Below, piece after piece: positions 1-27,089 of a stretch of DNA of 32,000 nt (its first letter is position 1; each line of letters opens with the position of its first letter). The DNA comes from Candidatus Saccharimonadota bacterium (GTDB lineage Bacteria > Patescibacteriota > Gracilibacteria > Absconditabacterales > Absconditicoccaceae), in contig JAUIDC010000001.1 of NCBI GenBank assembly GCA_030429145.1, positions 480,001 to 512,000 of the forward strand, read 5' to 3'. The notes beneath the pieces were generated by a model, which had not been told where the DNA came from, did not search any database, and worked only from the letters and a program-made list of their open reading frames with translations. The translations under genes and the position numbers were made by a program.

Positions 1-368
1 GCAAGAAGAAACCTTGGCAGTACTTTTTTTAGTTCAAATGCGTCTTTGCTGAAAAACGATTTGAGAATGCCCGCAAGAAAGAGAAATCACAGTATGAAGT
101 TTGCTATGTTCTTCATATAGTTCCATAGCTTAAAGAGAGCGCTATCGAGATGGATGAATGTACCATAGATGAAATCATTGGACATAAGCTTCCCTGCGAG
201 AAATGCGAGGAGCATCCATCCCCATGAAAGAACCTTTACTATGGCATTAAAGATTTCAACAGACCATGATACTGCAGGATCTCACTCGGCGGCAAAAGCT
301 GGATGTATCCAGAAGAGACATCCTAGTCAGATTAGTATAACTAACGCTTTTGCGTGCTGTTTCATCAT
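1..368 (-). CDS. N-terminal part of a polytopic membrane protein that runs off the left edge; paralog of the N-terminus of 371..2965; translated with UGA=Gly
   Basis: ATG at 366-368 lies 2 nt after the TAA of the upstream gene. Reads MMKQHAKALVILI[TGA]LGCLFWIHPAFAAE[TGA]DPAVSW...HLDSALFKLWNYMKNIANFIL[TGA]FLFLAGILK. It aligns with ...QLDSALFTFWNIVKNFANFAL[TGA]FLFLRSILK in the neighbouring gene, with TGA at the same column. It has 3 in-frame TGA and no TAA/TAG. Confidence 0.6.
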
Positions 369-370
369 GA

Positions 371-2965
371 TTATTGGTTTGTTGTGTTAGTAGTATTGTT
401 TGCGTTGTTGTCTTTATCTTTGTTTGTGTTGTTAGTGTTTTGTTTATTATTGTTGTTATTTTGAGATTGATCGTCTGCATTATCTGCGCCATCATTAGCA
501 GATTTGTTGTCGTCAGCAGCAGTCTTATTTAACCATGTGCTAAATGGAGTAGCTAGAGTTGTGTTGTCTGGTTTCATCTTCTTCATTGTCTCTTTATCTA
601 TAGTAGGAAGGAGTGACTCCCAAGAAGCCTCGTCTGTATAGTTTGTCTTAGCACTATTGCCTTTCTTTTGCGATACGAAACCATCTTTCGTCATAGTATA
701 GGTTGTGCCATCGGGCATGACGAATGATTTATCTTTTAGCTCTCCTTGCGCTGTGGCCTGGCTTGCTTCCGCTGCAACCTGGTCGATTTTGACAGTGATG
801 TCATCCTTTATGTCGTCTCTACCAGTATAGAAGTCTTTGATCTGCTGTGCGGTGAGTCCTGCGCCTCCAGCTGCGAGAGGAGTTGCGAGATATCTGACGA
901 AATCATCGTTTTGGAATGCCTCGTTTACGCTCTTGAAAGGACCAATCTTTCTTGTTTCAGCAATTTTGTTTACGAGGTCCAGACTCGGCTGTCCGTATTG
1001 GCTCAGGTCGAGCTGATTACCTTGGAGAGTAATACCTGCATTGGATGCATTGTAGAGAGCTCCTGTCGGTCATACGAGCGACCCGATTTGCTTGTTCACG
1101 TCGGCGTTTGTTTTGATGCCAGCAATAGCGCTTTTAATCTGAGCCTGTCATTTACTCTTCTGATCGGTAAATGTACCCTGGAAGATGTTTTCAATAGTAG
1201 GGGAAACAACCGTTCTTGCATTTTCCTCTGAAGCTCTTTCGATCTGATTTCCGATCTTTGAGGTTGTGTTTTTCAGTGCTGCGATACTTGTTCCACCTCC
1301 GATAGGGATGATTTCTGCCGTAGAGACAGCATTGGTGGCAACTTTTTCTAGGCTGTTTACTACGCCTCCAGTAAACGATGTGCTCTTCATCGCTGTCATG
1401 ACGATCGTCCACATGAGTCCGGTTCCGAAGATGTTGAGGATAAGCCATGGAAAGAAGTCGAGCATACCTGACACACCAAGATCCTGCGAAGGATTGTCGA
1501 TACAAAGCGTCGTAACAACAAGATTGATACAGGTCTTGTTGTTTTCGTTGAATGTGTTCATGCCTACGTCTTCTAGGCTGTTTCCCTTTGTAAGTCATTC
1601 GCTGAGTACTGAAAGGAAGACGATACTAATACTGATGGCAAACGTAACGATCACAGGAAGGAAGATCATTGCAAGAGCGTTTTTTACTGCGAATTTATCA
1701 TAGTTCTTTCCGATTTTACTAAGACTAAATCAAAATACTTCACTGAGTACCAATACTGGCGAGAAAGCGATTGTGATCCAGAGGATAGCAATTCTAATGA
1801 TGAGTATCACACACAGTATGAGTAGTGGAACAAGATATGCGATACCTATGATAGCTTTAATGATAGACTCCATAGTCATGGCTCCTATCGACTTGTTGAC
1901 GTTGACATGGATACTTCCAAGGTTGAGAAGACTACCGTAGAGCGTGTAGAAAGCGCCTTGGTATCCTTTAGATTTTTGTACGATACTTGAAATGTTCTGA
2001 CACTGATTGAATGCATCATTACAGTTGTTTTTATCAAGAAAGTCTTCTTGTGACTCATCGAGGAGTCTCTTGAGCTCTGGCGATCCAGAGATGATCTTGT
2101 CGCTATCTTGTACAATAGAAAAACTGAGGACATTGTTCCCGAACATACAGTAGTTCTGGTTGATATTATCCCAGGTAACATCGGTGTTTCCAACTTGTCT
2201 TCCAGTCGTGGTTACTCCATATGCGGATGCCCACTCGTCACCTCTGAGAAGTTTTTGGTTTTTCACTGCACAAGGGAGGTAGTATTCTCCTTCCGTTGTC
2301 GGGTAGGTATAGAGGATAACAAATCCTTTGTCGGCGGTCAGCGAGTTTCCAACGTCAGAGACTTTCAGATTTGTTTTTGCCCCAAATACTGGCTTTTTAC
2401 CGACCTCTTCTTGTCTGACAAGCTGCAAAGGTAGTCCGCCAACACCGATAGTTGCGACAGTTGATAGGTCGATGAGCGCTCCCATCACGAACCAACTTGC
2501 TTGGATACCAATACCAGCAATAAGAAGCTTTGATATCATTCCCATAGGGTTGGTCGCTTTGCTTCAGAAGTTGAAAATATATTTCAGTATGGACCGTAAA
2601 AAGAGGAATCACAAAGCAAAGTTAGCAAAGTTTTTAACGATATTCCAGAAGGTGAAGAGTGCTGAATCAAGTTGAAAATAGCTTCCATAGACAAGTCCAT
2701 TGTCGAGTGCGAGGCCTGCTAGCATCAGTAGTGGCCACATGAAAATATAGATCACCTTGAGGATGACCTCTAGCGTATCTGCGAACTCTTTTTGGCTATC
2801 TACATCGCTTGTGGTCGTTTGGCTACCCGTTGCAGCGTACACTACGGGGCCGTTGTGTACCACTTGCCCTTGATGGTTTTGTTGTAAAGGCACAAAAAAA
2901 GTAGCCAGTCCGACCATACCAGCGAGGAGATACTTCGTTCGTTTTTTTATTGTGTTTTTGTGCAT
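371..2965 (-). CDS. 864-aa polytopic membrane protein with a large extracytoplasmic loop and an Asn/Thr/Lys-rich C-terminal tail; topology resembles VirB6/TrbL but the family is not recognised
   Basis: Track ORFs 2609..2965, 1730..2545, 1148..1561 and 371..718 share one frame. I read the gaps 2546-2608, 1562-1729 and 719-1147 codon by codon and the only stops are TGA (2609, 2564, 1730, 1595, 1148, 1070). The true stop is TAA at 371-373. It has an N-terminal signal/anchor (MHKNTIKKRTKYLLAGMVGLATFFVPL), several hydrophobic segments, a central hydrophilic loop of about 190 aa, and a low-complexity tail (NNNNNKQNTNNTNKDKDNN). Confidence 0.75.
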
Positions 2966-3041
2966 TATGGCAATGCTGTTTGATAAAGAAATAGCTCTTT
3001 ATCAATTATAGGGAAGGGTGCCCCTAAACACGAAAATTAAC

Positions 3042-4256
3042 TTATGAAAGGATGTTTAACTCGTCTAATAGTTTGCGATATTTGTCAAAATCCTCTCATG
3101 TTCTTGACTTAATAAAATCTTTAACGATAATCTTTCGATCAACCAAACTCTCCTGGAGATTTTTTTGTGCGATTTCGAGCGTAAATGACATGTCTCCCGA
3201 GTAGTGAGATTTTCTCTTTAACGCCACATCTTTGACAGTGTGTAGCAGATTTGGCTCGATGTGTGTTTGGAGCTCATCGTAGCTGATAGACTCGGAAAGT
3301 ACTGTCAGATGGGTCTGAGCAAGAGTATAGTCGGAAAATGAGAGTGAAATGTCTCGTTTCCCACTAAAATTCTTTGCAATATTCTCGTCGATAGATTTTC
3401 TATGTTCTAAGATCTTATTTGCATTGAGATGTTCATCTTTTGCCAGAGCAACTACTATATATGGGTTTATTGCTACCTGTTTTGCCGTTATCTTGTTGGT
3501 TTCGCCATCCCAGCGAAACAGAAATTTATGGTGGTCTTGTTCCAGTGGTGATGTATACCAGATACTACCCGTACAGAGGTAGTTTTTATAGGCAAAAGGC
3601 ATATGGATGTGCCCTGAAATCAGCTGGATGTTCTCATTGTCTAAGAGTGCTGGGCTCAATGCAATATCCTTGTAGTCAAAAATGGCTTGCTGCCCAGGAA
3701 ATTTCGTGTCAGCGATATAATAGTGATGAATGATGGTTAACTGTTTATATTTTCTTATATACTCTTCTAAAATGATATTAATTTCACCACTTAAACGTTC
3801 ATTATTATTCTTCGACGAAAGTAGTGTCTTCAATGTGTCGTTTATCTTTTCTGAATCTTTTTCTTGAGAAGGGGTAATGTGTTTTGTAAATGGGAAAAAA
3901 AGAATCTCTTTCCCTTCCACAGTATGCACCTCTGGCGAAGTGATAAAACGAAGTATGTTTCCACCTTGATCTGGTAGCATATCAGCGATCTTTTTTCCCT
4001 CAGCGTAGACAAACTGTTGCCCGATCCAGTCATGATTTCCGGCGAGAATATAGAGACTTTTGCCTTTTTTCCGGAGCTCTAAGAAAAGGTCAAATAGCGC
4101 TGCTAGAGCCTTGCGGTCATAACTAAACATGTACATATAATCTCCCATGAAAATGAGGTTTTTTTCTTCCGGAAAACTGTCGACATAGTGCTTAATAGCG
4201 TCGATGATGGCGTGTGTATGTTTTGTTGTGATGTGTATGTCTCCTATGAGTAGCAT
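3042..4256 (-). CDS. Calcineurin-like metallophosphoesterase (Mre11/SbcD-type motif set), 404 aa under UGA=Gly
   Basis: Motifs present: LLIGDIHI (DxH), FMGDYMYM (GD), LAGNHDW (GNHD) and SGHIHMP (GHxH). The preferred start is MLLIGDIH at 4254-4256, because the longer track ORF start would overlap the upstream gene. The track ORF ends at TGA 3096-3098. Reading through adds GEDFDKYRKLLDELNILS before TAA at 3042-3044. Confidence 0.8.
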
Positions 4257-4294
4257 AAGAGCACTATAATTATTGGGTAGAAAATATCTATATC

Positions 4295-6301
4295 TTATTG
4301 TCCTCTTTGTATTTTTTTCTCGAGATTTCCTGCTGTGGTATTGATGGCGTTCATAGTGTCGGCTACTTGTTGCCACAGGAGAGCATTTTGACTCATAAAG
4401 TCGCTAATGAGCGTTAACATGTCGTTGTTGAGCGTTTTTGCTAGGGTATATGGAAATGAAGGATCGAGAGTGTTCGTCTGTTCTGACGAAGCATAGAGTG
4501 AAAGATTGGTAGAAGCTTGCTGCTGTTTAACTGGATTTGGGAGAATGATATATTTGTTTCTTTCCTGACCAACAGGACTATCTATGTACCTTCCTTGGCG
4601 AGCGCGGTCAGCGATAGCCTGCTGCTGTGATTTCTGAGCATTTTCTTTGTCTTTGTAGAGATTTGAGTCATAGATTGGTTTGAAAGCGATATTCATATCA
4701 AATGAGAGGATTTGATTGAGTTTGATCTTCGAAAGGGATGTGTCGAGAAATTCAGTGCTTTTTGTGTGTTTCATCAGCTGCCCAGAGTTTTTGAGCGCTG
4801 TGAGCACTGCATTTATCTCATCGACAATCTCTTCGACAGTTTTGACGGTCTTTCATCCGATAACCTCGGTCTGTGCAGTCGGTACAGTACAGACGCTGAT
4901 ACCAAAGATGCCGTTGTCGCTGTACTTTGTCCCACACAGACACTGCGCTTGGCAGACAGCTTTGTCTGCAGGAGCCAGTCCATCACATCTTGATAAACAA
5001 GAGTTTGCAGTGCTGTTTGGGTCGTTAGTCGAGCCATTGTTGCTTGATCCATTTTGGTTAGCAGAGCTACCTAAATTGGCTACTGCTGCGCTTGTTGGGC
5101 TGTTTTGCTGTAAACTTGAAGATCTGAGTGTCTGAGCAAGCGCAGCTGGTGCATTTATGGCACTATTGTATGTGCTGAGAGCTGAGGCGAGATTTTGTGC
5201 CTCAACGATCTGATTAGTTGCAGTCTGTTCAGCGCTTATTGTCGGTTCTTGTGTTGATCCAACAGGAGTGACGCATACGAGGCTGTTTTGGGGATTTGCC
5301 CCTATTGATTGACTATTGCTACGCGTGCTGGTTGATGCGCCATTGGGACTACTTGTAGTAGTCGTGCCTTGTACCGTCTGATGGTAGTTTGAAAGTTGAT
5401 TGAGTGACTGCGTTGCAGATACTGAGACAGATGTACCGACACTGTTCGTAGAAACTGCTGTGCTTGAGCGAGTGGCGCTTACCCCTGCTGATTGAGTATT
5501 ACCAAATGTGATACCGGCGTTGGTAGTTCCACCATTGCCACTCGGATTGAAATACGTCGGTGAGCCTCCAGCTCATCACAGACCAGGGAAATCATAGAGT
5601 ATAACTTCAGGAGCTGCGGTATTTGACTTGAAGAGGACATCTCCGATCATTTGCATGTCTAACAGTAGATCAAATGGACTGTCGTCCAGTGAACCATTGT
5701 AGAAGATGTCGTCACCACGATTCGCTGCATCCATAGTATTTTTCTTGGCTGCAATACTTATCGTATTGGTAAATGCTTGTGAAACAACCTGTCTACAGTA
5801 CGTGTAGGCTTCCTGTGAGTAGTTATCGTTCAATTGAAACTCCTGAAAATCTTGTCATTTTGCGCACTGAGCGACTCTTACGCAGCTTCTGACAAGCTGA
5901 TCGTTGTCCACAGCAAAGCTTGGTTTGCCGGTATAACCCGCAAACGATGCATTGAGTATTGGATCGCTAGCTGCGATAGTAGAAATGTCTGACGAACTGA
6001 GAGAGCATTCGTATTGTGCATTGAGGTTGTCTGCGACGCTTGAAAATGCCTCAGAGATAGAGCCTAGGGTGTTTTTTCTGGCGAGTGAGTAGGCCTGATC
6101 GTATATATTTCCTCACTGTGCGAGCGATTTGGTGAGAGCAGAAAAATCTTCTTCTTGGCTACGAAGATAGGCCTGTTGGATCAGTGTATCAACGGGGAGT
6201 ACAGAGACTGCATATATATAATGTGGAGCTACAAGAAAACTACCAATCGCAATGATGGTGAACAAGCTGTATGAGAGAAGGGTTTTGCGTGATAGTTTCA
6301 T
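4295..6301 (-). CDS. 668-aa secreted or anchored protein of unknown family, with a central Ser/Thr/Asn/Gly/Ala-rich low-complexity region and a Cys cluster
   Basis: Track ORFs 6113..6301, 5576..5833 and 4295..4807 share one frame. Gaps 5834-6112 and 4808-5575, read codon by codon, contain only TGA stops (6113, 5855, 5576, 5573, 4853). The true stop is TAA at 4295-4297. N-terminal hydrophobic segment: MKLSRKTLLSYSLFTIIAIGSFLVAPHYIYA. Cys cluster: CLSRCDGLAPADKAVCQAQCLCG. Confidence 0.75.
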
Positions 6302-6327
6302 GAGCCTTGCAAGAGATAAAGAGCATG

Positions 6328-7479
6328 TTATTGTTTTTGTTGTACATTTCTTAGTTTGTAGTAGAGTTGGTGTATTGGTGTGTAGATACGGAGTAATGAC
6401 TTCCTAAAGGCTATAATATCCTCATAATAGGCAAGTAGCCCAATATGGATAGGAAAGGCAGCCTGCATGTTTTGGAGCGTTTTCTCGGTAAATGCGACTG
6501 CTTCCTCACTGAGAGCAACTTCTTGCCTGAGGCGCATCCTTTCCTGGTCTGCTTCCATAGATGTGTCACTATAAGCGCGGAATTTGTTGTATGCTGGGAA
6601 TTGGAGCTGTTCGATGGTTATAGTAATGAATAGTTTGTAGAAAAGCAGTTCATTGTAGAGGAGATTGTGGAAAGACTCTCGAGAACTTGTGTTGAGGTTG
6701 CTGTTGTCAAAGGCACAGACGAGGAACTCTTTTGATGTCTCAGTACATTTTTTCCCCTGTGCTGTCAATAGTCTTCACGCATCGACATAGTTGGTCTGCT
6801 CTGTAAGTGTTTGTGCTTGTTGGATGAACTGTGCAAGGACATTACGTGTTTGTGGATGGAGACAAGGAGCCTCTTTTTCAGATCCTTGCGTTGCTCCAAG
6901 ATAGGTGACATTTTTGCTACCACAGATGCTATCACCAGGTCCAAAATAGGTATCTGAGAATGCCTTAATAGCTTCGTCAATAGATCATTCCTGGTAGCTA
7001 TAGAGCTGAGCGAGCTTTATCTTGCTGAGATCATTCATGACGATGGCAAAGAGCTGAGGGAAGAAGCTAGCAAGATCACATGAGGTCATGTCTCCATCTC
7101 GTTTGCAACCCGCAATCTTTTCTTGCTCTCGGTCAAAGGAGTTTGCATATTGCTTTGCTAGCTCAGATTGCTCGCTGTGGGTACAAAGTATGCTAAGAAA
7201 GAGAGATTGCTTTGGATCATAGTAGAGCCCTGGTGCTGCCGGATCGGTAAATCCTTGTGCCTCGGCCGTTGCCTCACAGTAGGCTTCTATCAGTCACTGT
7301 CTCGATGTATTCCCTTCGAGTCCTAACGACACATTGGTCATAAGGTTGTTCACGAAACCCTCTTTTGTGGTGTCTTCTGAGTATCCTTTTGGTACATTGC
7401 TGAAAACAACTGCGCTTGCGAGTGCAAGAGTAGCGATGCATAGTGTACTCATAAAGATAATCTTCTGACGTTTGTGCAT
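6328..7479 (-). CDS. 383-aa signal-peptide protein, largely helical with several Cys, family not recognised
   Basis: Starts MHKRQKIIFMSTLCIATLALASAVVF. Track ORFs 7294..7479 and 6328..6768 are in frame. Gap 6769-7293 read codon by codon has TGA only (7294, 6985, 6775). The stop is TAA at 6328-6330. Confidence 0.75.
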
Positions 7480-7496
7480 GGTCTCTTATAAATATA

Positions 7497-8867
7497 CTAA
7501 TAATAACATGTTCCTCAAAGGTTACTACATTGATTTTCGCAGGCTTTCCCCAGATTTTGTGTGATACTCTTTGCTTTCTGTGCATCACCAATAATGTTGA
7601 TGGCTCCATAGACAACAATGCTTGTACGTGGCATCTCTCTGGTGATTACCAGTGGATCTGCTAGTACATGGGCTTGCCGTGAGGACTTGCTCTGTGCAAG
7701 GGTCGTGTTGACGTCGGAGAGAAGCGCAGTGTAAAGACTTTCTGATGCGCGTCTTGTGGCAAAGTCAGGAGTTTCAATATCAAAGAGTGATCTGGATGGT
7801 AATGTAATGGCGCTCGCTTCGTTGTCGTTTTTTGTATAGAACTCTTTGACGTCGTTGATTTCACGAGCGAAGCTATTGCCGAGGCGTTGCATGCTGTTTG
7901 CCAGTGCTGAGACGCCTTCTCTGTTGGCGTAAGGTCACTCTATGCCATAGAGGTTTCTGAGAAGGTCATTTTGTTTTTCTCTAAAGCCGAGGTCTTGGCA
8001 CTTAACACTTGATTGCTTTGCAAATGCACATTTTAGTCTTTCGAGCGATGTCTTGATGGTGTCGACAGCTTCCTTTGTGTCGTCCTTCGCTCCATCTCGC
8101 GTCTCTGAGACGTTCTGACCAAATCTCTTATAGGTATCGTCACACTTGTTGATACCTCTGGTACATGCATATTCTTCTTGAAGGGATTCATAATTGATGC
8201 TTGTCAGGCTTATACCCAATTTCTCTCCATGTTTTTCCATAAACACATTGAATCCGTTGGTATTGCCTCCGGCAATGAACCTCTTGTATGCTTGATTGAG
8301 ATCCCGTAGGGCAGCCATGATTTCTGAAGCCGAACTGGTCGGTTCACCTACCACCTCTATAAATGCGTCTTCCTGATCTCCGTATTTATTGAGTACTTCA
8401 GTAATTCTTTGTCTATAGTCTTGAATGTTACGAATGAACGCTCACGCTTGTCACAAGTCAAAAAGTGTATCGGCAATATCTTGATCCAGTTGATCGAGTT
8501 TCTCTCGGTCTCTCATCAGGGCCTTTGAGTTGGTCATCACAGCGAGTTCTTGGCGGACACTTGAGGTCACTATCTGTGTTCCGATGGTTCCCATAAGAAC
8601 ATTGAATGTAACAGCAGTTTGTCCCTTCTGATTGAGGTTGTTTGCGATACGGGTAAGAACGTCAGTGTCTGTGCTTTGCTGGATATTTGTTTGTCTCTCA
8701 TTTGCTACTGTCTGTAGCGTTTGTATCATATCGTATGAAAAATCTATGTATTGATCAATAACGGGTGAAGTACTGGCACATCTCAAACATTGTTCTGCAG
8801 CAAAAGCTGGGGCAGTCAGCCCGATGAGTCAGAGTACACTTACTACAGCTATTGCTCGTTTTTTCAT
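7497..8867 (-). CDS. 456-aa signal-peptide protein, family not recognised
   Basis: Starts MKKRAIAVVSVL[TGA]LIGLTAPAFAAEQC. Track ORFs 8451..8786, 7935..8354 and 7515..7892 share one frame. The gaps contain TGA only (8829, 8451, 8442, 7935, 7515). The stop is TAG at 7497-7499, after ...CSNL[TGA]GTCYY. Confidence 0.75.
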
Positions 8868-8888
8868 AGAGAGAGTATGAGATAAAGA

Positions 8889-9740
8889 TTAGTTTGAACA
8901 CATTCTTGTCCCTTCTTGCACTTTTCCGTTAACTGATGAGAAGGTTTCATTGATACGAGAGAATTTATCTATGAGTGTTGCCCGTCTTGTTTCGAGAAGG
9001 TAACTTTTTGTATATGTTTCCCAGACATTGGTCATGAGAGTGTTACTTTTTCTTACCATGAGTGTTTGTATGTATGTCATTTCATCTTCGATGCGTCTTT
9101 TTGCGAGATCTTCACATCAAGCGAGGTTGTAGCGAGAGTCGAGATCACTAGTCGTTACAAAGAACTTACTTGTGACGCAAGCTGCTTGTCTACATACCGC
9201 CGTATATCTTGTTGCGAGATCAAGATCACCGTAGTTTTCTATCTGGCAAGTGTTGTTGTTGATGCGAGCTTTGTATCGGCCTGCTGGGTCCCGTACTTGT
9301 AGAAATGTATTTTGTAGGCTTACGGGAGCATTTCATTTTCCATCGTCTTCTCGTTCTTTGAGCTTTGTTGCCCATTCGTCTCCTTTCGAGTCTTTGCTAT
9401 CACCAAGTTGATCATCAAGTTTGAAGAATCATCTACTCACAAGATGGTCAAAGATATATGGGCTTTCTGCGTTGCTAGTGTTTTGTGTCGGTCCTTCACA
9501 CTCGTTTACGATGGATCCTATCTGACAGCAATATGATTTCAGATCTGCCAGCGCTCCTTCAAGGTCATCGCTACTCAGTGGATTAACAGTAGTAACATTG
9601 ATAGAGCTGAGCGGGTTGAAGTTCTCATTTGCTACCAAGCTACAATCATACAAAATATCAGCACTCGCAAAACTGCTGGCGATGGCCAGTCCTACGAGAG
9701 AGATAGATCAAACTGCTTTATAAAGCATCTGTCTTTGCAT
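8889..9740 (-). CDS. 283-aa signal-peptide, Cys-containing protein, family not recognised
   Basis: Starts MQRQMLYKAV[TGA]SISLVGLAIASSFASA, 5 nt after the giant gene's TAA. Track ORFs 9429..9653 and 8889..9080 are in frame. Gap 9081-9428 has TGA only (9333, 9117; also 9708 and 9429). The stop is TAA at 8889-8891. Confidence 0.75.
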
Positions 9741-9745
9741 GATTT

Positions 9746-15700: not shown

Positions 15701-18700
15701 TCTCACAAACATCTCATGGGCGTTTTTTATGTCCTCATCACCTCATGGTATAGCAAGACATATTTGCTTTCCATCAACGTCCATTTTTCCTTCGTTATTT
15801 TTATATACTCTGAGAGTATCTTTATTTGTCTGTACGATGATATCTTCATAACTATTGCCGTCTGCATCACCAATAAAGACATTTTTTATACCATCAGCAA
15901 TGAGCATAAGCATTCATAGGTCATTGAATGGCTTGTTTTCACCTCCGTGATTTTTGAGTATTCTTACACTTCCATCAGTGTAAATTACAAGCAAATCTTT
16001 TTGTCCACTTCTGTCTAGATCGAATGGTAGTGTTTGAGAGATGCTTTTCTCCGATTCCGTGAATGTAAGTTCACCGATACCAGCATCGTAGTCTGTTGAA
16101 ACAACTTTGCTATTATTACTCTGACGTGCGATCAAAGGATCTCCGTAGGTGATGAGAAATGGAGATGCCCCGTGTTGAGTCGATTCTCATACATTGTCTC
16201 ACTGGGCAAAAGCTGTAGCTGCTTGGAAAGTATTTTTTCGATTGGTCTGTGTGTCTGCGTCACGACTTTCCTCGATACCTCCATTCCAAGAAGTTTGAGA
16301 ACTGAGAGGAGATGCATTTCTGTCGTAGACTATCCATCATGCAGGACTATTTGTCGATCATCCAAGCCAGCTCTTTTCTACTCAAGCATTGTCGCTAAGA
16401 TTAAAATAGTTTTCTTGTAGGCTCGCATGAAGACGAAGTGTTCCCACGCGTTTCCCTTGTAGTCTTACCTCCCATATCATATCGCGGTTGTTGTCATAGT
16501 TCTGTGTTGATACAATTTCAGCTGCGTTGTTATTGCTGTTAGGATTCCAGACGGTTTCTCCATTTACTACAATAGATCTGTTTTGAACAGTGTTTGAAGT
16601 AATCGAACTGTCGAGCTGTTCAGGAGTGTAGATGATAGTGTTGTTCCCTATGCTTTCATTGGTAGCTCACTGTCTTACTGCGAAACCATTAGCATTTCCT
16701 AGAGAGACATATCAATACTTATCTAGATCATAGATAAGTTGATTATCTTTTGTACTAAGTGTTACAGTATGACTGTCATATATTTGTCCGTTTTGACTGA
16801 TGCGTGCAAGAGCAGGCATGACGCGTTCGGGGTGTGTTAAGAGCGTGGTGACGGCTATAGTCTTATCTGAAGAGCGGATAGTATCCCCAGCTTCGTTGGC
16901 TTGTTCTGTGAAGTAGCCCCATTTGTTTCATCGGTCATTACCAGCAAGAAGGAGGTACATCGCATTGAGGTTTGATGACTTTCGTTGTGGCGCCAAAGTA
17001 GTGACTGTCTGAGTGTCACGTAATTGCTCATTAATATTTTTATTAGCTATCTCAGCATACAGATAATGATTGCCTCCTATTTTGCCGCTGTCGATAGTGA
17101 ACGAACCAACGCCATCTTCATCAGTGCTTACCGATGTATTTTTGTTTCCATTGATAGTTATGTCTCCGATAGCTGTGATATTAACTGTCGTCGTGCTCGA
17201 AACAGGGTTGTTTCGTCTGTCATAGACCATTGCTCTTGCAGAAAATGTTTTGTCGGCAAGCATGTTTTCAGGAGTGAGCAGTGCTACGCGATATGGCTCT
17301 GCCGACTCAATAGTTACAGGAATTGTTTGGAGGGTAAGTCATGGGACCTCTATCGTTAGAGTGTCGTCTCCTGCGCGGAAAGAAGGATATAGGAGGATAG
17401 TTGCAACACCGTTTCTTATAGAGAACGATTGTTGTTCGACAAACTCTTTTGATGTGATGTTTCTTCATGACACAGCATATGTTGTTTGTTTTGAGCTACC
17501 TGGTATGAGTAGTCCGTTTGTGCTTCTCACGATAGCAGTAGAGTCTAGAGGATTGCCATTTGTATCTGTGAGTGTTAGTACAACTCTTGGTAGAGCTGAC
17601 TCTTGGAGCTGCGCCACGTTGTTTTGTGTTGAGAAATAGTTGTCGGTATTTTCAGGGAGTGTGATATTTATGTTAGATGCTGTTTGAGAGTTGTATTTTA
17701 TTGAAAGTGTTCCGTTTGTCAGAGAGAGAGATTTAGATGCACGAGGCGCAACACTTGTAGAATTTGGGTTGATAGGTTCAAGAACGAGATCTATCGATAA
17801 TACATTTCCAGGAAGGTTTGCTGTGTCAAGATAGTATGCTTGTGTATCATTGAGTTGTTGCAATTGGATTTCCCTTTCAGCTGTTCCGTTGCTGATGATC
17901 TGTCAGGCAGAGGTGGTTAGTCTATATGTCGTTGTGGTTTGTTCTACTTTATTTCCGTAGGTGTCATAGCCTGCGACTAAGATAGGGAGCTGAGAGTTGT
18001 AGAGAATTCTCTCTGTCGGTGTGATAATCTCTGCTCTTGTCATAGCTCCTGCTACGATAGGTATAATTATCTGTTTTTCTGCACAACGAGAACCTTGACA
18101 GACTTTGACATCCAATATGCTTGAACCTACATTTGTTGAAGCGAGGCTAATAGGAATAGCGCGTGGGTTGGTAAAGAGGTTTTCTTGGAAGACATATTCG
18201 GACTGACAAAGGTTTCTGTTGTTTGCGATCGGGCAATTGTCTCCTGTTCCACTGAGGCGCACTGTAAGCGATCCCAAGTCATCTTTACTAGTGAGACTGA
18301 GGGCAACATCATCTCTATCGTCCATACTCACACTTGCTTTGTTGAGTCTCATAGTAAGCGATGCATCGAGAGAACGAATGAGTGCTTGTGCATCTTGTGA
18401 AAGATTTTCACTTCCTCCTCATATCAATGCTTTCCATTTGTCACTAAAGCGCTCTACGTTGTCTCATCGCTGTGTTGCTGTTTGCTCAAACTGATCAAGA
18501 GAAAGAACAGGTCACTGAGCATTGTTGAAATTGATTTTTACTACATCAGAAACAGTGAGCTCTTTCAAAGAGTCCATCCAACAAGAGAGGGCTTTAGGCC
18601 ACTTTAACAATGGTACTGTCGCATTTTTTTCGATACCGCATCTTTTGTTCCTTTCTGTTTCTATCATTTCCAATCATGCATTTTGTGCATCGCTACGAGT

Positions 18701-21442
18701 ATTTGCTGTTGCAGAAGCAACAATCTTTTCTTGGTTGATAGAAGAGACAATAGCAGGTGTTGTAGTATTCTCTATGATATCATTACCATCGGAATTGATA
18801 TAGACTAGTTCATATCATTTTGGTTCGTATTCAGGCGTGATAGCAGAGGAAGGGTTATCATTTTTAGTAAGATATTGTTCCACGACGTATCCAATCTTTT
18901 TGTTGATATCCAAAGAGGACTGATTGTTTTGGAGATCAGTCATCAGGTCATTTGATGCTGGTTTAGTATATCGTCAAAGGTTATGTCGGTGGAGTATTTG
19001 TGCGACCTCGTTAATGGTGTTTTCTCCAAGTACGTTGATGAAGAAGTCGCTAGGAAGAGTATTGTAAGAGCGTCATTTAGGCGATGCGAACTGATCTACA
19101 GTTGTCAGCTTGTCATAGGCAGCAGCTCTTGATGCATAATAGCTCGCTGCTTTTGTGTTTTCCTGTGAGAGTGTAAGATTGATCGCTGTCACCTTTTCTT
19201 GTAAGTATTGTTTGATAGCATCTGCAATTTCGGCAGGAGATTTAAGTGTGAGCGTATCATTGTTTTTATTGTAGACTTCGACATTGTAGATGTTTGGATA
19301 GTCAAATCTGATTGCGCTTCCTCAGATACCTTTGAAAGCAACATAACGAGTGCTGTCGATAGGTCTGTCTTGGGTAAGAGGATTCATATTTTCGATTTGC
19401 TCTGGAGTCGGAGATGTATGAGACTCTAATGTACTGATGGTTTTATAAACATAGTTGTCTCCACAAGCTTCAGGGCTTGTGTTCTGATTGTTATTTGTTA
19501 AGTGTACTCTCGAAGGAGATGATTTATATGTAGCGAAATATTCAACGCTTCCTGGTTGCTTCTGAGGGTAGCCATTGTACCGGTTTTCATTTACTTCTCC
19601 TGGAGGAACTGTCTTGCCACATACAAGCCAAGGAGCAACGCGATACTGTTGTGTTCTATGTAAGAGTGAATTGGTTAACTCTTCAAGAAAGTACATCTCT
19701 TGACTCATTTTTGTGAGAGTCATTTTAGAACCAGCAATATCAAAGACAGGTCAACCAATGCTTGTGTCAAAGCGAGGATTCCATGCCATCTTTGGATTGT
19801 TTTGTTTGAGTTGCATAGTATCTCCATCGATATTGAGAGGACTTATACCTCCCCAATATTTAGTTACAAAGTCATCTATCTCTTGGCTTGCTCTACACTT
19901 TCTATCTTCATAAAATTTTTGATCACTTGGTACAAGCATCGTATTGTAACCTCTAGAACTTTCTACCTGCCTAGAAGAGATACCATAAGAAGCTCCTATA
20001 GATCTGGCTGTATAATCAACATCGATATCATCTTGGTCTCCTTCGGTTGTATAATCATATGTTGTCAAGTTCTGTCGACTTCAAATATTCTTCCATGTGC
20101 CTGGATAGATAGATATATCCTGTGTTGAAGAAACATCGTAAGCGCTTCTTCCAAAATAGAAATTTTCAAATCTCTCTTCCACGAACTTCGGTAACAATGG
20201 AGGCGGTGCACCACATCTGACTTTTTCATATACAAGAGGAATAGGGATGTGCAGATCGTAGTTTTCTGTATCTAACTTATTGTAAAGTGCATCTTCAAGT
20301 AACGAGTTTGCATCTAGTAGAACCACGCTTGTAATATTGTCTTTGAGAACAGTCTTTTTGATGTGGCTATCAACGTCCGTATCAGACCATCTTCCACCAG
20401 CTTTGACATTTTCAGATATACTTGTAAGAAACTCGGGTGTGAAGAGACTCGTATAAGGGTGTACCAGTCCTCAAAGTGACTGTCCGATCATTAGTGTCGG
20501 GATCCTGTCGCTGTCACCTCCGACTTCATTGAGGTCTGCGTCAGCTTCTTGAGCCATCCTATTGAGATTGTTCTTTCGGCTACTGATAGTAGAGTTATAC
20601 TGTTCTCCGATCTCTCCAAGTTCGCTATAATCATCATCTGTAGGTAAACTGTTGTTTGCTGTATAGTTGCTGACCAGAGACACAGCGCTTTCATTCGCTC
20701 CATCTTTAAAGTAGTCTACTATGAGGTTAGTAAACCTATGATAGGTCATGTCTTCATGAAAGAGGAAGCTATTGGTATATCACGATAAGAACTGATCAGA
20801 AAAATATTTCTTGAGTCCAATAAAGTCGTCGTATCGTATTTTATTGCTTGCATAAGCTGCTGGATTTTGATCGTAGTTCCTTAGTTTTTGAAAGAACTCC
20901 GCATATTCAGCCGTGTCATCAAACTGTATCATACTTTGTCGGATGTCTGCTTTTTGATCTCCGTTTTCGTGTGGGACAAAGTAGGTAGAGCTTGGGTCAA
21001 ACACATATGTGGGTTTTTCGAGGTCGGTATATGGGTATATACTTGGATAGACGTAGTTATTTTCTTTGATAACAGGAAGCGGAAGGTCTCCTATGAGGAT
21101 AGTTCCTATCAGTGCTGACTTCTTTTCTTTGATGCCTTCCTGATAGAGATTTTCCAGCATCTTCCATATGTCTGTAGATTGGAAATTATCTTTGTTGATA
21201 GGCATAAGTAGGGCTTTGGTCATCGAACTGCGCTTTTGTAGGTGGTTTTGCGCATACCAGTCGATGTCGCTACGATATTGTTGATAGATGTTTCTATCTA
21301 CAAAGACAGCTATGATAGATTCTGCTGATTCGTCTGCTGCCTGAGCTGTATTACTAAAGCCAAAAATCCACTGTGTGAACGAGTGGGAGAAAAAATATAT
21401 ACCTATCAATATACCTATACTTACTTTGGTTTTTACCGACAT
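9746..21442 (-). CDS. Giant 3,898-aa secreted surface or adhesin-like protein with bacterial Ig-like and FG-GAP-type repeats; translated with UGA=Gly
   Basis: At least 17 track ORFs from 20780..21517 down to 10238..10615 lie in one frame (end coordinate mod 3 = 1). I read every inter-ORF gap codon by codon and found 51 in-frame TGA, no TAA/TAG and no frameshift. The preferred start is MSVKTKVSIGILIGIYFFSHSFTQWIFGFSNTAQA (ATG 21440-21442), which reads as a signal peptide. The stop is TAA at 9746-9748. Confidence 0.85.
12593..12907 (-). repeat. Periodic Pro/Ile/Leu/Asn-rich segment inside the giant protein
   Basis: About 105 aa read IDLPVLPIPNFRIPNINIDLSNINLGMDIVLPKFNFVPLNVPLPRVPDLPTPPTIDLETNLNVSIPQIPVLPMPPTLPELPSFIPNIELNLPTLPPAPRIPKIAP. 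It is preceded by a Cys knot, KCGKCKVDNYDFYSCTLSLLC. Confidence 0.6.
15464..16135 (-). other. FG-GAP/VCBS-like Asp-rich repeat region inside the giant protein
   Basis: Repeats of the DxDxDG type: DLDRSGQKDLLVIYTDGSVRILKN, GDADGNSYEDIIVQTNKDTLRVYKN and DMDNDGSIDIVTNDTL. One more copy lies near 11400 (NDLNGDAKEDIILWD). Confidence 0.55.
16928..18352 (-). other. Bacterial Ig-like (invasin/Big-type) repeat region inside the giant protein
   Basis: Segments typical of Big domains: VAGYDTYGNKVEQTTTTYRLTTS, LTLTDTNGNPLDSTAIVRSTNGLLIPGS and MVYDRRNNPVSSTTTVNITAIGDITINGNKNTSVSTDEDGVGSFTIDSGKIGGNHYLYAEI. A further Ig-like unit lies at about 10238-10615 (ISATDNQGNVASSNINISW). Confidence 0.6.
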
Positions 21443-21550
21443 GAACCAGAGTACTATACAAAGAACCTTACAATGCCTCTTTTCTATGTATATACAGCAT
21501 AATTGCAAGCGTTCCACCTACCAATCCTGCATAAATAATATGTAGTATAT

Positions 21551-21585
21551 AAAAAAGTCCCTTCTGTGAGAGAAAGGACTTTTTG
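21551..21585 (-). terminator. Rho-independent terminator after the fibre-protein pair (symmetric A-run/T-run, could act in both directions)
   Basis: The sequence aaaaaAGTCCCTTCTgtgagAGAAAGGACTtttt has a 10-bp stem with one mismatch and a 5-nt loop, flanked by an A-run and a T-run. It lies 34 nt downstream of the TAATAA stop at 21616-21621. Confidence 0.6.
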
Positions 21586-21618
21586 TTATATGAAAGCACA
21601 CATTTTACTTAGCTTTTA

Positions 21619-23511
21619 TTACTCGTTTTCGAGAGCAGTGACTCTTGCTTCTAGTGCATCAATGGCTGTGGCATTTGTCACATACTGATTGTAGAGATCG
21701 GTAACCGTTGGGTTTTCTCCACCTCATTCTGATCCACCGTATGTTGTATTAAGATCTGTTGCTCTTTGATCTAGCTCTTTGATGGCTTGGATAACAAGAC
21801 CTATCAAGTTTGCATACTCAACAGACTTGTAACCATCTTCATCTGTATGAACGATCTCTGGGAATACGTTTTCAACCTCTTGTGCAAGAAGACCAATGTC
21901 AGCTCTTCCGCTTGTTTTCCATGTAAATGTATATCCTGTAAGACTATCAATCTTGCTGATAGCACCAGTAATAGGCGTTATACTTTCCTTGAGTGTTTCA
22001 TCTGAAACGATGTATGTAGTATTTGCAATGATATCTCCACCTACATGTAATTTTACCTGAGGATTTGCAACACCGATACCGACAGAACCTCCGTTGTAGT
22101 AGATGGCTCCATTTGAACCTGACATCCACATGCTATTAAGAAGGTTTGAGATAGATGGTACGAGTACCACATTACCAAGACCGTCTACACCAAGATTTCT
22201 AATACCATAACCTGCATATGAAGAGAAACGTACGTTACCGACAACTTCAAGAGCAGCAGCAGGGAAGAGAGTGTTGATACCTACACGAGCGGCAGCAGCG
22301 ATGAATGAAGAAGCTGCGTTACTTACCTGTACGCTACCAGTATTGAGACCTACATTGTAGTAGAATCTTACTGGTTGACGTGTAGCAGGAGGGTTGCTAC
22401 TTACAGGGTAGTTAGAGTCGTTTTGTCCATCAGCAACATCGACACAGTAGGCTGCACTATGATTTGAAACGATACTGCTACCACAGTCATTAGTTGACGC
22501 TGATGTATCACAGTCACATCTTGGGAAATTTGACCAGAATGTATACTGGTATGGTTGTAATTCTGTATAGACATCTACGCTAGTACCAAGATTGTCAACT
22601 CATCGAGCAGGATATGCATATGGCAAGAATGCAGAGCTCAGATGGATAACTCCCATCCACAATGCAGCACTTGAAACATGGAAACCTTCTGCACCTGTGA
22701 GCACGAAAGAGTATCCACCGCCGCCTGTCGTTGGTAGCATCACACTACCACTCATGTCTACTCTCAGAGCGCTATCTACATGAAGCTTTGCCATAGGAGT
22801 ATCTGTTCCGACACCGACGTTACCATTGCTATCATGAAACCATGTTCAGTAGAAAATATCATTGGTCCCTGAAATTGCATGCCATAGAGACGATCCTCCT
22901 GGGTTTTGCAATCATCCTGAACTGTAATTACATATAATGGTTCCGGTAGATGACCACCCTTGGACATATCAGGTTGAGCCGCAGTCTCCTGTTCCAATAA
23001 TTGGAGCACATTGTGCTGCACCGTTTGAGATACCTATCATGGTCTCTCCAGCTCCACAAGTGAGCGTTACTGTACCAGTAGCACCTCCACCTGTTGAGAA
23101 ATTGATACCAGTAAGGTGCCCTGTGGTGATCGTTCCAGTGGCGATATGGATTCCTGAGATGGTATATGGCTGGATGTTGCTGCCATTGATAAGATCTCTC
23201 ACGATATACCCATCTGCATCTGTTTTGAGTACACCTCCAGTTGGACCTCCCAACGCTGCTGGATCTACCCAGATACCTGTAGAACTGAGTATCACCTTAT
23301 TGTCTCCTTGTGGAGAACCATCAGTGGTGATGCGGAGCTCTTTAATGGTTTGTATCACATTGTCGATAGACGACTGTATCTGTAGATCAGCATGTGTGAT
23401 CGATCATCGTAGACCAGTCAAACCAACCAGTGCAAGTACAACCATGACTCCCTTCATGAAAGGATGACGTGGAAGATGATTTCCTAAATCAAATGTGTGC
23501 TTTTTTGGCAT
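21619..23511 (-). CDS. 630-aa fibre-like surface protein with a C-terminal peptidase S74 (endosialidase-type intramolecular chaperone) domain
   Basis: Track ORFs 22969..23358, 22600..22794 and 21724..22170 share one frame. The gaps have TGA only (23404, 22969, 22912, 22846, 22600, 21724). N-terminus: MPKKHTFDLGNHLPRHPFMKGVMVVLALVGLTGLR[TGA]SITHA. Repeated GNVGVGTDTPMAKLHV-type motifs. S74 signature: YIVSDETLKESITPI...IGLLAQEVENVFPEIV...VEYANLIGLVIQAIKEL. The stop is a double TAA at 21616-21621. An alternative start is the internal MKGVM. Confidence 0.8.
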
Positions 23512-23562
23512 TTTGAGATCAATAATGATTAAAGAATTTTTATGTTAGTATGATGATTGATA

Positions 23563-26500
23563 TTATTCTGGCAATGTTCCATCTCGTTTCATTCCTCATT
23601 CGAGGGCGGAGATACGAGCTTCAAGTATTTGTAGTTCTAGATTTTGTTGATCGAGTCTTGCTTGTCACGCATCCAACATCTTTGTATGTATTTCTTTGAC
23701 TGCCTGGATGGCAACAGCGATGAGATTATAGTATTCAACTGCTTTTCTTTCTGAACCATCAACTAGATTGAATGTTTTCACAAGGTCAGGGAAGACAGCT
23801 TCTACATGCTGAGCAATAACACCGATGCTTGATCTACCGTCGAGGATCCAGCTAAATGATACGCCTGTAAACTGTTGGATACCTGTAGCGGCATTTGTCA
23901 GAGGTGTGATATTTTCTTTGAGTGTTTCATCAGAGACAATATAGTTTGTGTTTGCAATGATGTCTCCCGCTACATGTAGTTTTACAACTGGTCAACTTGT
24001 ACCTATACCTACATTTCCTCAGTTATAATAAAGTCACTTGGTTCCAATTTGCCATAACCCAGCAGACTGTCCATTGAGATCTCCAGTAGTGAAAAGGTCT
24101 CCTTGGTTGTCGACACTAAGATATGAGTAGTTTGTATTGTTGAGATTGGTGAAACGGACATCACCTACAACGTCAAGTGCTGCTTGAGGGGTCTCTGTAT
24201 TGATTCCAATTTTACCTCCATTTGCATAGAAGATAGCACCTTGATAGTGTACTGAAAGTGCTCCAACAGTACCAGCGCCAGGCATGACTGCTTTGTCTAC
24301 AAGAGCTTGTATCATACCGTCGCCATCTACTCTGAGAGTAGGAATGTCTCCTGTAGAGATGATCGTACCAGTAGAACCTACCGAACCACTAAGGAACGAC
24401 CCAGTGAGACTTGCAGCCCATCGATATCTTTCTAGCTTTCGACCAACAGTACCTGAATGCATACTGTAGTTCGTTCCGTTTGCTCGAGTGATATCAATAC
24501 AGTTAGGTCCTATATAGTCTCCAGTAAAGTATGGAGCAGGATTGTTGAATATAGGAGAGAATGGTCTGTTGTTTACACTGTGACTTCCGTTACCATTGTA
24601 GCTTGTGCGCACAAAGTCGTAGTATCTGTTTGCATATTGGCTATTGAGAAGAGGACTCATGTTGAAGTATCCTTGATATGGTGCTCCAGATGGAAGTGGA
24701 GGATAGTTCATAGATGGCCATGCTATATTTGGAAAGTGTGAGTTCATCTGACCTCCCGCTGTCGCACAGTCTGCTGAGTTGTCGTCTGCATCACATTCAC
24801 ATCTTGGAGGAACAGGAAGCACCTCGGCTGCATATCGAGAACCGTCGGGTTGCCAGTCGCCCATTTTCATTGTATAGATGTTGTTTGCAAATGTGATATT
24901 GAGGCGATGCATAAATGCAGCTCCATAAGGATAGTGTGTTGCTCCAGTTGTTACTGTTCGTCCAAAAGGAGCTCCTCCAGAAGGTGGTGCTGCATTGAGA
25001 GCGAGGTCGACACACCTCAGTAGTCCTATATGATATCCACTTGTTGCAGGAGCATAGTATGTTGTTCCGTATGGAGGAGTTCCGTTTGTTCCACAGTCTT
25101 CTGTGTTGATGTCGACATCACATGGACACTGGTAGACAGGCTCCTGAGATCCTCGTGTGAAGAGCTGTTCAAGAGTGTGAGGCACTTGAGCATACAGTGT
25201 TGAGCCTGTTGCATAACTAGGAGGAGTCGCTGCTACCGCTCATGAAATAACAGCCGGTCCTGTTGAAGGTGATGAGACATGAAGTCTTACTAGTGGGTTG
25301 TCGGTACCAACACCGACCTTTTCGTTGACGATGCCTCCTGAAACTATCAGAGTTCCTGATACATAACCTCCGCTATAGAGATCAAAGACTTTATCCATTT
25401 TTGCGAGGGTGTATTGCTTTGCTGCGTTTGGAAGAACGTCGTCGCTAATGTCGTAGCAGTGAGGACCGAGATCGCTACCTGTCCACACATAGCCGTCAGA
25501 CGGAGACCGAGGGATAGTAGGGTAAAGGAGGTTCATTTGTTTTCCAGGCACATTACACTCATTTCCTGTTCCTACGTCACATCCACATCTTGGAGGTAAG
25601 TTTCCTACAGTGTTTGGAGATGGAGAATAGTTCAGGTAGTAAGTGCTACCCGATAGAGAAATATTCATAGAGTGTTGGGTCACTTTATTGTTTGTTGTAT
25701 CAATGTCATAACATGACTGTTGACCTATATAGAAGAAATACTGAGAAGTAGGTCTTGAGTAGGTAGCAGGTACATTACATGCTGCATCAGTACTAGTGAT
25801 GCTACTATCACAAGGACACTCGTATCCTTGATAGTATTGTCCGATAGGTGCTGAAGCATAAACCGAATATCCAGTCCCTGCAACATATCCTGTGACAAGG
25901 CTATACACACCGCCCGCGCCAGTACCATAATAGATGTCGTTAGCATTACTAGGTGTTTGTTTCCAGTAGTCACCATTGGCTGCAGAGAGTACGCCTCCTG
26001 TTAAAAGACAGTTCGGACTGCCAATGCCTGACCGTCATATAAACGATCCATTTGAACAGAGGGGAGAAGGTATACCACTTACTAAACCTGCTGGTGCACA
26101 TGTAGCATTACCATTGGTAAATGAGATGATTACCTCTCCACTTGGACAAGAGCCATCATTTACTGTAAGAGTACCAGCTCCTATATAATTGTAGATATTA
26201 AATCCAAGATTTCGCACGGTGATGGTTCCAGTAGCGATAGAACTACCAGTGATACTATAAGGAGAAAAAGCACCTCAAGTTATTTTATCTGATCTTAAGA
26301 AAATTCCTTCAGGAGCAACTAAGACTCTCTCATTTCCTAGAGAAGGATGGAGTCTGATAAGTTTGTTGTTTGTTCATGAAAGCTCTACTATGGCCGTGCT
26401 ACTTTGATCTCCGTCTTGCGTGATCATTAGCTTTTGCAAGATAGGAAAAGATCTTGTAATGCTTGAGTCCAGTGTTAGAGCATGGACGCTTCCAAATACT

Positions 26501-26589
26501 AACAAACTGCCTAAAAATGCTAGGCCAAGCAACTGAAGTCTGTTGAGTGATGTACGGTGCTTTCTGTGCTTTCTGTGCTTTTGTTTCAT
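23563..26589 (-). CDS. 1,008-aa fibre-like surface protein; longer paralog of 21619..23511 with an internal module duplication and a C-terminal S74 chaperone domain
   Basis: Track ORFs 26374..26589, 26035..26217, 25240..25908 and 24034..25185 share one frame. The gaps have TGA only (26374, 26275, 26035, 25240, 24034, 24019, 23992, 23665, 23596). Signal peptide: MKQKHRKHRKHRTSLNRLQLLGLAFLGSLLVFGSVHA. S74 signature: YIVSDETLKENITPL...IGVIAQHVEAVFPDLV...VEYYNLIAVAIQAVKEI. The stop is TAA at 23563-23565. Confidence 0.8.
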
Positions 26590-26932
26590 TATACCCAGAA
26601 ATGAGTGAATAAAAGCTCTTTTTTCTCACATACAATAGTATGTAATCATATTGAATTTGCTGTTTTTGTACTATTTTAAGATGAAAAGTGTATAGCAAAT
26701 AGCAAAAACAAGAACCAATGTAGTTAAAAAATGATACAATATAAAACTGCCAGTATGTGCTAAAATGCTTCATCAGAACGTCTTTTTTAGATGTTTGCGG
26801 GCTGGTATGATTTATAAAAATGAAAATTTGCTAACTACATTATATCAGAGCCTATTGAAACATCTTGATAAGGGTGCGGATTCTTGTATAAGAAAGGTGT
26901 TATAGTAGAGGTTGTTCTGCTATAGTAAAATA

Positions 26933-26960: not shown

Positions 26961-27089
26961 ATTATTGTCCCTCTTTGGGGATATGATCATTAACAGTTAC
27001 TCTTGTTGAAACAATATATTTAGAAGGTAATAGAGCGGCTACTCTATACTTTTCTCATCACAATTAATTAATGCAAAAAAGAAGAAATT

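Follow-up and report, generated by a model that had tools for sequence, protein, structure and literature searches.

We analysed a stretch of 32,000 nucleotides (contig JAUIDC010000001.1, positions 480,001 to 512,000; hereafter the window) whose gene content depends on how TGA is read. Translation table 11 gives 107 short open reading frames (ORFs). We re-called the ORFs with TGA read through and, for comparison, with TAA or TAG allowed as sense. Reading through TGA gave nine long ORFs on the minus strand (371-2998, 3042-4403, 4295-6403, 6328-7485, 7497-8888, 8889-9860, 9746-21517, 21619-23544 and 23563-26670), the longest of which (9746-21517) has 3,923 codons. We hold with high confidence that the window is a segment of an Absconditabacterales genome in which UGA encodes glycine, CGA encodes tryptophan and only UAA and UAG terminate, and that positions 1-26589 hold ten ordinary intact genes, not dozens of fragments. 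Nine of these genes are complete; the tenth, with its start at position 368, is cut by the left end of the window:

1..368, minus strand: 5' part of a gene for a membrane protein, 652 codons when complete and paralogous to the gene listed next; 3 further TGA within the window
371..2965, minus strand: multi-pass membrane protein, 864 aa; no Pfam match; 6 TGA, 1 CGA, 1 CGG
3042..4256, minus strand: calcineurin-like metallophosphoesterase, 404 aa; Pfam Metallophos, E 7e-10; 1 TGA, 2 CGA, 1 CGG
4295..6301, minus strand: secreted Ser/Thr/Gly-rich protein, 668 aa; signal peptide; 5 TGA, including a doublet at 5573-5578
6328..7479, minus strand: secreted Cys-rich protein, 383 aa; 3 TGA, 3 CGA
7497..8867, minus strand: secreted protein, 456 aa; 5 TGA, 3 CGA, 2 CGG
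8889..9740, minus strand: secreted Cys-rich protein, 283 aa; 4 TGA, 2 CGA, 2 CGG
9746..21442, minus strand: giant surface protein with VCBS/FG-GAP repeats, 3,898 aa; 51 TGA, 26 CGA, 33 TGG
21619..23511, minus strand: tail-fibre-like secreted protein, 630 aa; C-terminal Peptidase_S74 chaperone domain (PF13884, E 3e-14); 6 TGA
23563..26589, minus strand: paralogous tail-fibre-like protein with Peptidase_S74, 1,008 aa; PF13884, E 2e-12; 9 TGA, 8 CGA, 2 CGG

The nine complete ORFs contain 93 in-frame TGA, and neither TAA nor TAG, in 8,800 codons. The other two frames of the same DNA contain 578 TAA or TAG, which excludes chance as an explanation for the open frame. If counting begins at the likely start codons, the number of TGA is 90 (10.5 per 1,000 codons), and the reading frame is preserved across every TGA break. 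ORFs of 150 codons or more sum to 6,416 amino acids, and to 15,745 when TGA is sense. There is no comparable gain when TAA (7,342 amino acids) or TAG (8,944 amino acids) is treated this way. TAA or TAG closes each of the 11 complete genes of the window, and the test of stop usage rests on these 11, since only TAA and TAG served to delimit the flanking genes. The preliminary description of this region had counted ten genes with in-frame TGA, without in-frame TAA or TAG and each closing with TAA or TAG, and we find the same. It had also predicted that a standard-code annotation would be wrong here, and genes called with code 11 on this contig are indeed fragmentary. Most products of the locus have signal peptides, as had been suspected from the gene starts.

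Local context already points to glycine. All three TGA-TGA doublets lie in Gly-rich contexts. The peptide contexts cited earlier in favor of glycine are present in the sequence (x marks TGA): YYNxGNVGIG at 24019, PGLxxAGGSPTYF at 5573-5578, GGSExGGENP at 21724, LGKxxATSxPP at 14444-14461 and SWLGxSTNSPAxW at 16337-16360. The composition reported for the 323-codon stretch 18353-19321 is correct for its 7 GGN and 3 TGG codons, and has to be corrected for TGA, which occurs 7 times rather than 8; the stretch also has 3 CGA. In the best segment of the alignment of the two S74 genes, TGA stands opposite G, G and N.

We then compared the giant gene (9746..21442), which is the main source of our codon statistics, with its orthologs in other genomes. 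A scan with one genome per species gave 80 related loci, all of which have the giant-gene ortholog, complete or interrupted by the contig end; 79 were used for a codon-for-codon alignment. At our TGA columns these loci have GGN in 32.4%, TGA in 25.9% and TGG in 0.3% of cells. This profile resembles that of our GGN columns (GGN 38.0%, TGA 20.1%, TGG 0.1%) and is unlike that of our TGG columns. Position by position, 21 of 57 TGA fall in columns with at least 60% GGN or TGA, and none of the 57 in Trp-class columns. Once TGA is recoded as Gly, our sequence matches 61 of 67 conserved-G columns. In the relatives themselves, in-frame TGA varies from 8 to 72 per 1,000 codons, with the lowest GGN in the loci richest in TGA.

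Distant homologs whose Trp and Gly contents are normal gave the same answer. At TGA columns, 56 of their 237 cells are G and 1 is W, where the background frequencies are 5.6% for G and 0.7% for W. TGA columns are Gly columns, neither Cys columns nor alignment ends. When the same inference was made for all codons, only TGA (to Gly) and CGA (to Trp) switched class; CAC, CCC, CGC, AGG and GTC received another top residue, representing conservative swaps or few columns. The homologs of the giant protein are ~4,000-5,000 aa long and come from Candidatus Gracilibacteria and Absconditicoccaceae, with remoter ones in, for example, Peregrinibacteria. Database translations of close homologs in code 4 contain 6-8% Trp and 1-2% Gly, and table-25 translations of homologs contain 0.4% Trp and 7% Gly.

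Sequence beyond the window extended the comparison to housekeeping genes. An independent Logan assembly (L081) is 100% identical to window 17108-32000 and runs 8.7 kb beyond the right end. L082, from the same contig, runs 6.9 kb beyond the left end, and its ORF at 13889-15847 starts at window position 368. Readable sequence amounts to ~47.6 kb in all (the window and 15.6 kb of extra contig). The left flank, 2-7 kb off the window, encodes L10, L7/L12, S2, EF-Ts, S6-S18 and the start of rpoB. The right flank carries trhO, hflX, a sigma factor gene, sufS, folD and rnhB. We compared four of these products with solved structures of FolD, SufS, RNase HII and HflX. FolD TGA falls on Gly in 13 of 15 cells, and both Gly of the PGGVGP motif are encoded by TGA. 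In RNase HII, TGA is found at the glycines of GRG and KGY. SufS TGA falls on Gly in 7 of 15 cells and on Trp in none, and in HflX, TGA-364 corresponds to the Gly of SA-x-x-G. The codon tally, the distant homologs and the structures, three independent comparisons, agree with the preliminary choice of glycine over tryptophan or stop. The reading of UGA as Gly is thereby well supported by comparative analysis, which excludes Trp, stop, selenocysteine and pseudogene readings.

UGA is not the only codon concerned. Our TGG columns were aligned with arginine in 14-21% of Gracilibacteria/Absconditabacteria translations, so we tabulated the Arg codons one by one. At our CGA columns, relatives have TGG (31.2%), CGA (29.1%) and CGG (5.9%), with Tyr/Phe in 13.4%, Lys in 0.9% and the Arg codons CGY/AGR in 0.5%. 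Our TGG columns have nearly the same profile (TGG 27.9%, CGA 24.5%, CGG 4.3%), and true Arg columns, with CGY or AGR in our gene, contain at most 0.2% CGA. Per position, 12 of 27 CGA lie in columns with at least 60% TGG, CGA or CGG, and none of the 27 in Arg/Lys columns. With CGA and CGG recoded as Trp, the sequences agree at 20 of 20 conserved-W columns. On the same contig, SufS CGA-122 corresponds to the invariant W of HHANIVPWQ in all three structures. By these comparisons, CGA is read as Trp.

The native genes of the window contain 47 CGA and 9 CGG next to 64 TGG. CGA makes up ~40% of the Trp codons, and Trp content is 1.4% with CGA and CGG included. AGA is the main Arg codon, CGG is rare, and CGA usage is 55 per 10,000 over all codons of the native genes. 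The 9 native CGG codons (45 aligned cells) fall on hydrophobic or aromatic columns, and relatives place CGG at our Trp columns, suggesting that CGG is probably read as Trp as well. The preliminary description assigned plain table 25, which covers UGA = Gly and overlooks the change of CGA from Arg to Trp. With CGA reassigned, table 25 still mistranslates ~0.55% of codons.

Several observations weigh against these assignments. Glutaminase CGG-119, in the plus-strand part of the window, lies where the nine closest homologs have Arg. FolD CGA-229 stands opposite Ile and RNase HII CGA-96 opposite Lys/Asn, in both cases in distant homologs. With 9 codons and 45 aligned cells, CGG is too rare here to decide its meaning. 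The content of guanine plus cytosine (GC) is 40-45% (~42%) here and 26-38% in the clades for which CGA/CGG reassignment was described (PMC8629427). Neither the window nor the adjoining 15.6 kb (L081, L082) yielded a tRNA gene, hence neither a tRNA-Gly(UCA) nor a Trp-type tRNA(UCG) was seen, and neither tRNA(UCA) nor tRNA(UCG) was found in 58 related loci.

In related loci including L003, L015, L034 and L061, the giant gene has 8-10 CGA and 2-4 TGG per 1,000 codons. CGA is the main Trp codon in these loci, a stage more advanced than first reported. We also considered CAC as a Tyr codon, the commonest deviation, since four giant-gene CAC (codons 67, 818, 1832 and 3746) lie on columns that are 92-100% Tyr. 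This was rejected because the metal-binding His of the GDIH and GHIH motifs of the metallophosphoesterase are encoded by CAC, which is among the catalytic His codons of this enzyme. The four CAC at Tyr columns look like ordinary lineage-specific Tyr-to-His changes.

All 80 related loci are from SR1/Absconditabacterales-type metagenome-assembled genomes (MAGs) with conserved synteny. This affinity, which rests on homology and synteny, agrees with the Absconditabacteria/Gracilibacteria origin that had been proposed. A protein 100% identical to the S8 peptidase of the window is encoded on a 936,577-bp NCBI contig. The window is cellular DNA, most plausibly a chromosomal segment of an uncultured Absconditabacterales bacterium (candidate division SR1; GTDB class JAEDAM01). 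One related locus, L074 (CAZTRB010000026.1), is a 9.8-kb contig with a recoded giant gene that has been binned in a 'Muribaculaceae' MAG. L074 and P0040, a partial S8 ortholog, are probably Absconditabacterales contigs mis-binned with Bacteroidota, and this mis-binning could hint at co-occurrence with Bacteroidota.

The ten recoded genes form a conserved cell-surface locus around the 3,898-aa VCBS/FG-GAP protein. The repeat families PF13517 and PF01839 were seen on homologs of the giant protein. In related loci, orthologs adjoining the giant gene were found for the genes at 8889 (48 loci), 6328 (27), 4295 (26), 7497 (11) and 3042 (5). By this comparison, genes 3042 to 21442 constitute a locus conserved in the order Absconditabacterales. 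The two S74 tail-fibre-like genes sit upstream of the giant gene. The Pfam search gave no match for five of the secreted or membrane proteins. The tandem membrane paralogs (864 and 652 aa; window 1-2965 and L082 13889-15847), which have no Pfam match, share an N-terminal …YGxxxxLDSALFxxWN…NFxLGFLFL and are placed between the surface-protein locus and the ribosomal-protein genes.

Gene orientation flips at ~26.7-27.1 kb. The GC skew of the plus strand is positive throughout. We considered a replication origin at this divergent switch and rejected it, as there is no sign change in GC skew and DnaA boxes number 8 with 10 expected. Codon bias is linked to the strand (window, L081-L085): minus-strand genes favor C-ending codons (CTC 31 per 1,000) and plus-strand genes favor G-ending codons (GTG, GGG, TTG), a bias reproducible in four genomes. 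To the right of the switch are two genes that we refer to as the cassette:

27090..30692, plus strand: S8 subtilase with Ig/PKD repeats and a C-terminal sorting domain of the type IX secretion system (T9SS) type, 1,200 aa; 0 TGA among 102 Gly codons; 21 TGG, 1 CGA
30883..31638, plus strand: Gln_deamidase_2 (protein-glutaminase-like), 251 aa; Pfam PF18626; 0 TGA, 1 CGA, 2 CGG

Together, the two genes have no TGA in 1,451 codons. The sorting domain of the S8 protein is Por_Secre_tail (PF18962, E 2.4e-10, residues 1123-1185) and is also present on the orthologs P0039 and P0041. To our knowledge, T9SS is not known in Patescibacteria, and we know of T9SS-type sorting signals working only in Bacteroidota-type cells. 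The cassette (window 27090-31638) occupies the same site, between the S74 genes and trhO-hflX, in three loci from other samples (L083 3414-8185; L084 7001-11947; L085 7001-11603). Across these four diverged Absconditabacterales genomes, UGA encodes none of ~530 Gly residues of the cassette, and 9-30% of Gly in the neighboring genes:

Our genome: 0 TGA among 121 Gly codons of the cassette; TGA share of Gly in neighbors 14%; binomial P 1e-8
L083: 0 among 130; neighbors 30%; P 7e-21
L084: 0 among 146; neighbors 21%; P 5e-16
L085: 0 among 134; neighbors 9%; P 3e-6

The translation-machinery genes (L082 16065-21160) strongly avoid the reassigned codons. They contain 1 TGA and 2 CGA in 1,328 codons; of their 73 Gly codons, 1 is TGA (P = 2e-4), and GGT is the preferred one, as it is in the cassette. 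Because these genes also avoid UGA, we attribute its absence from the cassette to expression: selection against UGA in strongly expressed genes is the most likely explanation. UGA is a disfavored Gly codon both in translation-machinery genes and in the S8/glutaminase pair. The arginine codons of the glutaminase do not fit neatly with this explanation. In the four genomes, its CGA and CGG swap with CGT, AGA and AGG at Arg columns, albeit in small numbers, whereas native genes in these genomes have CGA/CGG at Trp columns. This interchange, which is standard-code behavior, is seen at glutaminase codons 118-119 and alignment columns 617, 618, 680 and 705. The few CGR codons of the S8 gene are mostly on Trp, Phe or Ile columns.

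A second explanation for the cassette is that selection keeps it readable in the standard code, irrespective of expression level. It is suggested by the absence of UGA from ~530 Gly codons while other synonymous usage has equilibrated with the neighbors, by the interchange of glutaminase CGA/CGG at Arg columns and by the retained T9SS-type sorting signal. We consider this unlikely. If it were true, standard-code host bacteria would express the cassette or exchange it regularly with these cells, and the cassette would parallel, on the cellular side, the code-agnostic phages found in these lineages.

It is less likely still that genes 27090-31638 are foreign, either through an assembly chimera with Bacteroidota or through a very recent transfer that has left them in the standard code of the donor; we give this little credence. 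The T9SS-type C-terminal sorting and CHU_C-type Ig domains are typical of Bacteroidota, and the absence of TGA from 1,451 codons, the CGG-119 on an Arg column and the CGA/CGG interchange of the glutaminase would all be expected of such genes. A chimera at 26.7-27.1 kb was nevertheless rejected: the Logan assembly is 100% identical over both junctions and runs on into the recoded housekeeping genes, and the same two genes have the same locus and synteny in three genomes from other samples. An exact 40-mer at the junction had no match in a scan of metagenome contigs. Pairwise identity among the four genomes is 75-82% for trhO and hflX, 40-49% for S8 and 35-52% for the glutaminase. All four are roughly equidistant for cassette and flanking genes alike, which fits vertical inheritance with fast evolution of the cassette. 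The synonymous codon usage of the cassette matches that of the plus-strand native neighbors (r 0.58-0.82). A recent Bacteroidota transfer had been considered from codon usage and was rejected, as the difference from the minus-strand genes is mostly a strand effect in all four genomes. We likewise set aside the impression that the best hits are Bacteroidetes, since the sole named close match, P0040, is on a partial contig of 3.7 kb labeled 'Bacteroidetes bacterium', and the three close S8 homologs with readable context are all in Absconditabacterales loci. The shared locus, equidistance and matched codon usage indicate that the acquisition, if any, is old and that the cassette has been inherited vertically. 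These UGA-free genes (27-31.6 kb) are part of this genome and not of another organism.

Another possibility is a stop-recoded phage or mobile element, with reassigned TGA in its late genes, beside genes in the standard code (27-32 kb) that belong to the host or to an early module. The Peptidase_S74 tail-fibre-like proteins and the abrupt change from TGA-rich to TGA-free at ~26.7-27.1 kb are reminiscent of this, and TGA-avoiding phages are known for code-25 hosts (PMC10746230). However, recoded housekeeping genes lie on both sides of the region in one contig (L10, L7/L12, S2, EF-Ts, S6-S18 and rpoB; trhO, hflX, sufS, folD and rnhB), the identical S8 protein is encoded on a contig of 936,577 bp, and synteny at the giant-gene locus extends over 80 Absconditabacterales genomes. 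We regard a phage or mobile element as highly improbable.

The two remaining readings concern TGA itself, and both have next to no probability. Translation table 4 (UGA = Trp), as in Mycoplasmatales, some insect endosymbionts and TGA-recoded phages, would account for TGA being plainly sense, is the code in which many public databases translate the homologs, and would give a Trp content of ~1.8%, which is not impossible, but it conflicts with the TGG and W counts at TGA columns (0.3% against 32% GGN in relatives; 1 of 237 cells in distant homologs), with TGA on invariant Gly and never on Trp in FolD, RNase HII and SufS, with the TGA-TGA doublets and with the skewed 6-8% Trp and 1-2% Gly of the relatives' code-4 translations. 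Real stops, whether as pseudogenes, sequencing errors, programmed read-through or selenocysteine, would match the dozens of collinear fragments in table 11 and the fragmented automated code-11 calls, but not the 93 TGA and absent TAA/TAG in a frame held across every break, the reading through TGA by the orthologs in 80 genomes, or TGA columns that are Gly and neither Cys nor alignment ends.

The preferred reading therefore is that of an Absconditabacterales genome with two reassigned codons and termination at UAA and UAG. Its ribosomes read UGA as Gly and CGA as Trp, and CGG very probably as Trp too. The present comparisons show what UGA and CGA mean, that only UAA and UAG serve as stops, and to which clade the window belongs. 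From the literature on this clade, a tRNA-Gly bearing the anticodon UCA would decode UGA, release factor 2 having been lost, and tRNA(UCG)/tRNA(CCG) with Trp identity would decode CGA/CGG.

This code is already published for the order, so our result is a recognition of known biology and not a discovery. Table 25 is the candidate division SR1/Gracilibacteria code (Campbell et al. 2013 and Rinke et al. 2013, as cited in PMC8629427). The window shares with it the frequent in-frame UGA Gly codon, the stops limited to UAA and UAG and a host clade that uses the code, but CGA/CGG stay Arg in table 25, whereas CGA is a Trp codon here. The class JAEDAM01 is listed as using table 25 (gTranslate preprint). 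For Absconditabacteria, UGA = Gly together with CGA/CGG = Trp was found by Codetta (Shulgina & Eddy 2021, eLife, PMC8629427), and the same code is repeated in later work (PMC13092985). The window agrees with that code in both reassignments, in AGA as the main Arg codon, in the rarity of CGG and in the interchange of CGA and TGG at Trp columns. It differs in GC content, as described above, and in CGA usage, which is 55 per 10,000 over all codons here and below 37 per 10,000 over aligned Pfam domains there, although the two measures are not identical. CGG = Trp is probable and unproven for the present genome.

TGA-avoiding, code-agnostic phages of Gracilibacteria/Absconditabacteria have been described (Liu et al. 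2023, mBio, PMC10746230). The cassette resembles them in having no in-frame TGA, in its TAA/TAG ends, in being readable under both codes and in residing in a code-25 organism. Unlike these phages, it is a chromosomal, syntenic and vertically inherited gene pair, and at least its S8 gene places a small number of CGR codons, in native style, on Trp or hydrophobic columns. The giant protein recalls the giant membrane/surface proteins of Vampirococcus lugosii (Absconditabacteria), for which a role in attachment to the host has been proposed (Moreira et al. 2021, PMC8080830). Both are ~4,000 aa long, with a predicted membrane/surface location, in Absconditabacteria. The likeness, which also takes in the interaction repeats (VCBS/FG-GAP on homologs) and secreted-protein neighbors of the window protein, is one of description, and by this analogy the giant protein may have a role in host attachment.

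The contig with a protein identical to the S8 peptidase is already in a public archive, and the code affects how such sequences are represented there. Most public translations (Logan, JGI, ENA) of the giant-protein homologs P0001-P0023 are in code 4, giving 4-8% Trp and 1-3% Gly. Table-25 translations still place Arg at Trp columns, so that mistranslation in large protein databases is systematic. In the present contig, the official table 25 turns CGA-encoded Trp into Arg at 47 window codons and at the catalytic-site-proximal Trp of SufS. The window is a well-resolved example of CGA as a major Trp codon at ~42% GC. UGA-Gly is used unevenly within this genome, being excluded from translation-machinery genes and from one conserved secreted-enzyme cassette. 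This unevenness bears on the remaining cost, or the regulation, of decoding a captured stop codon.

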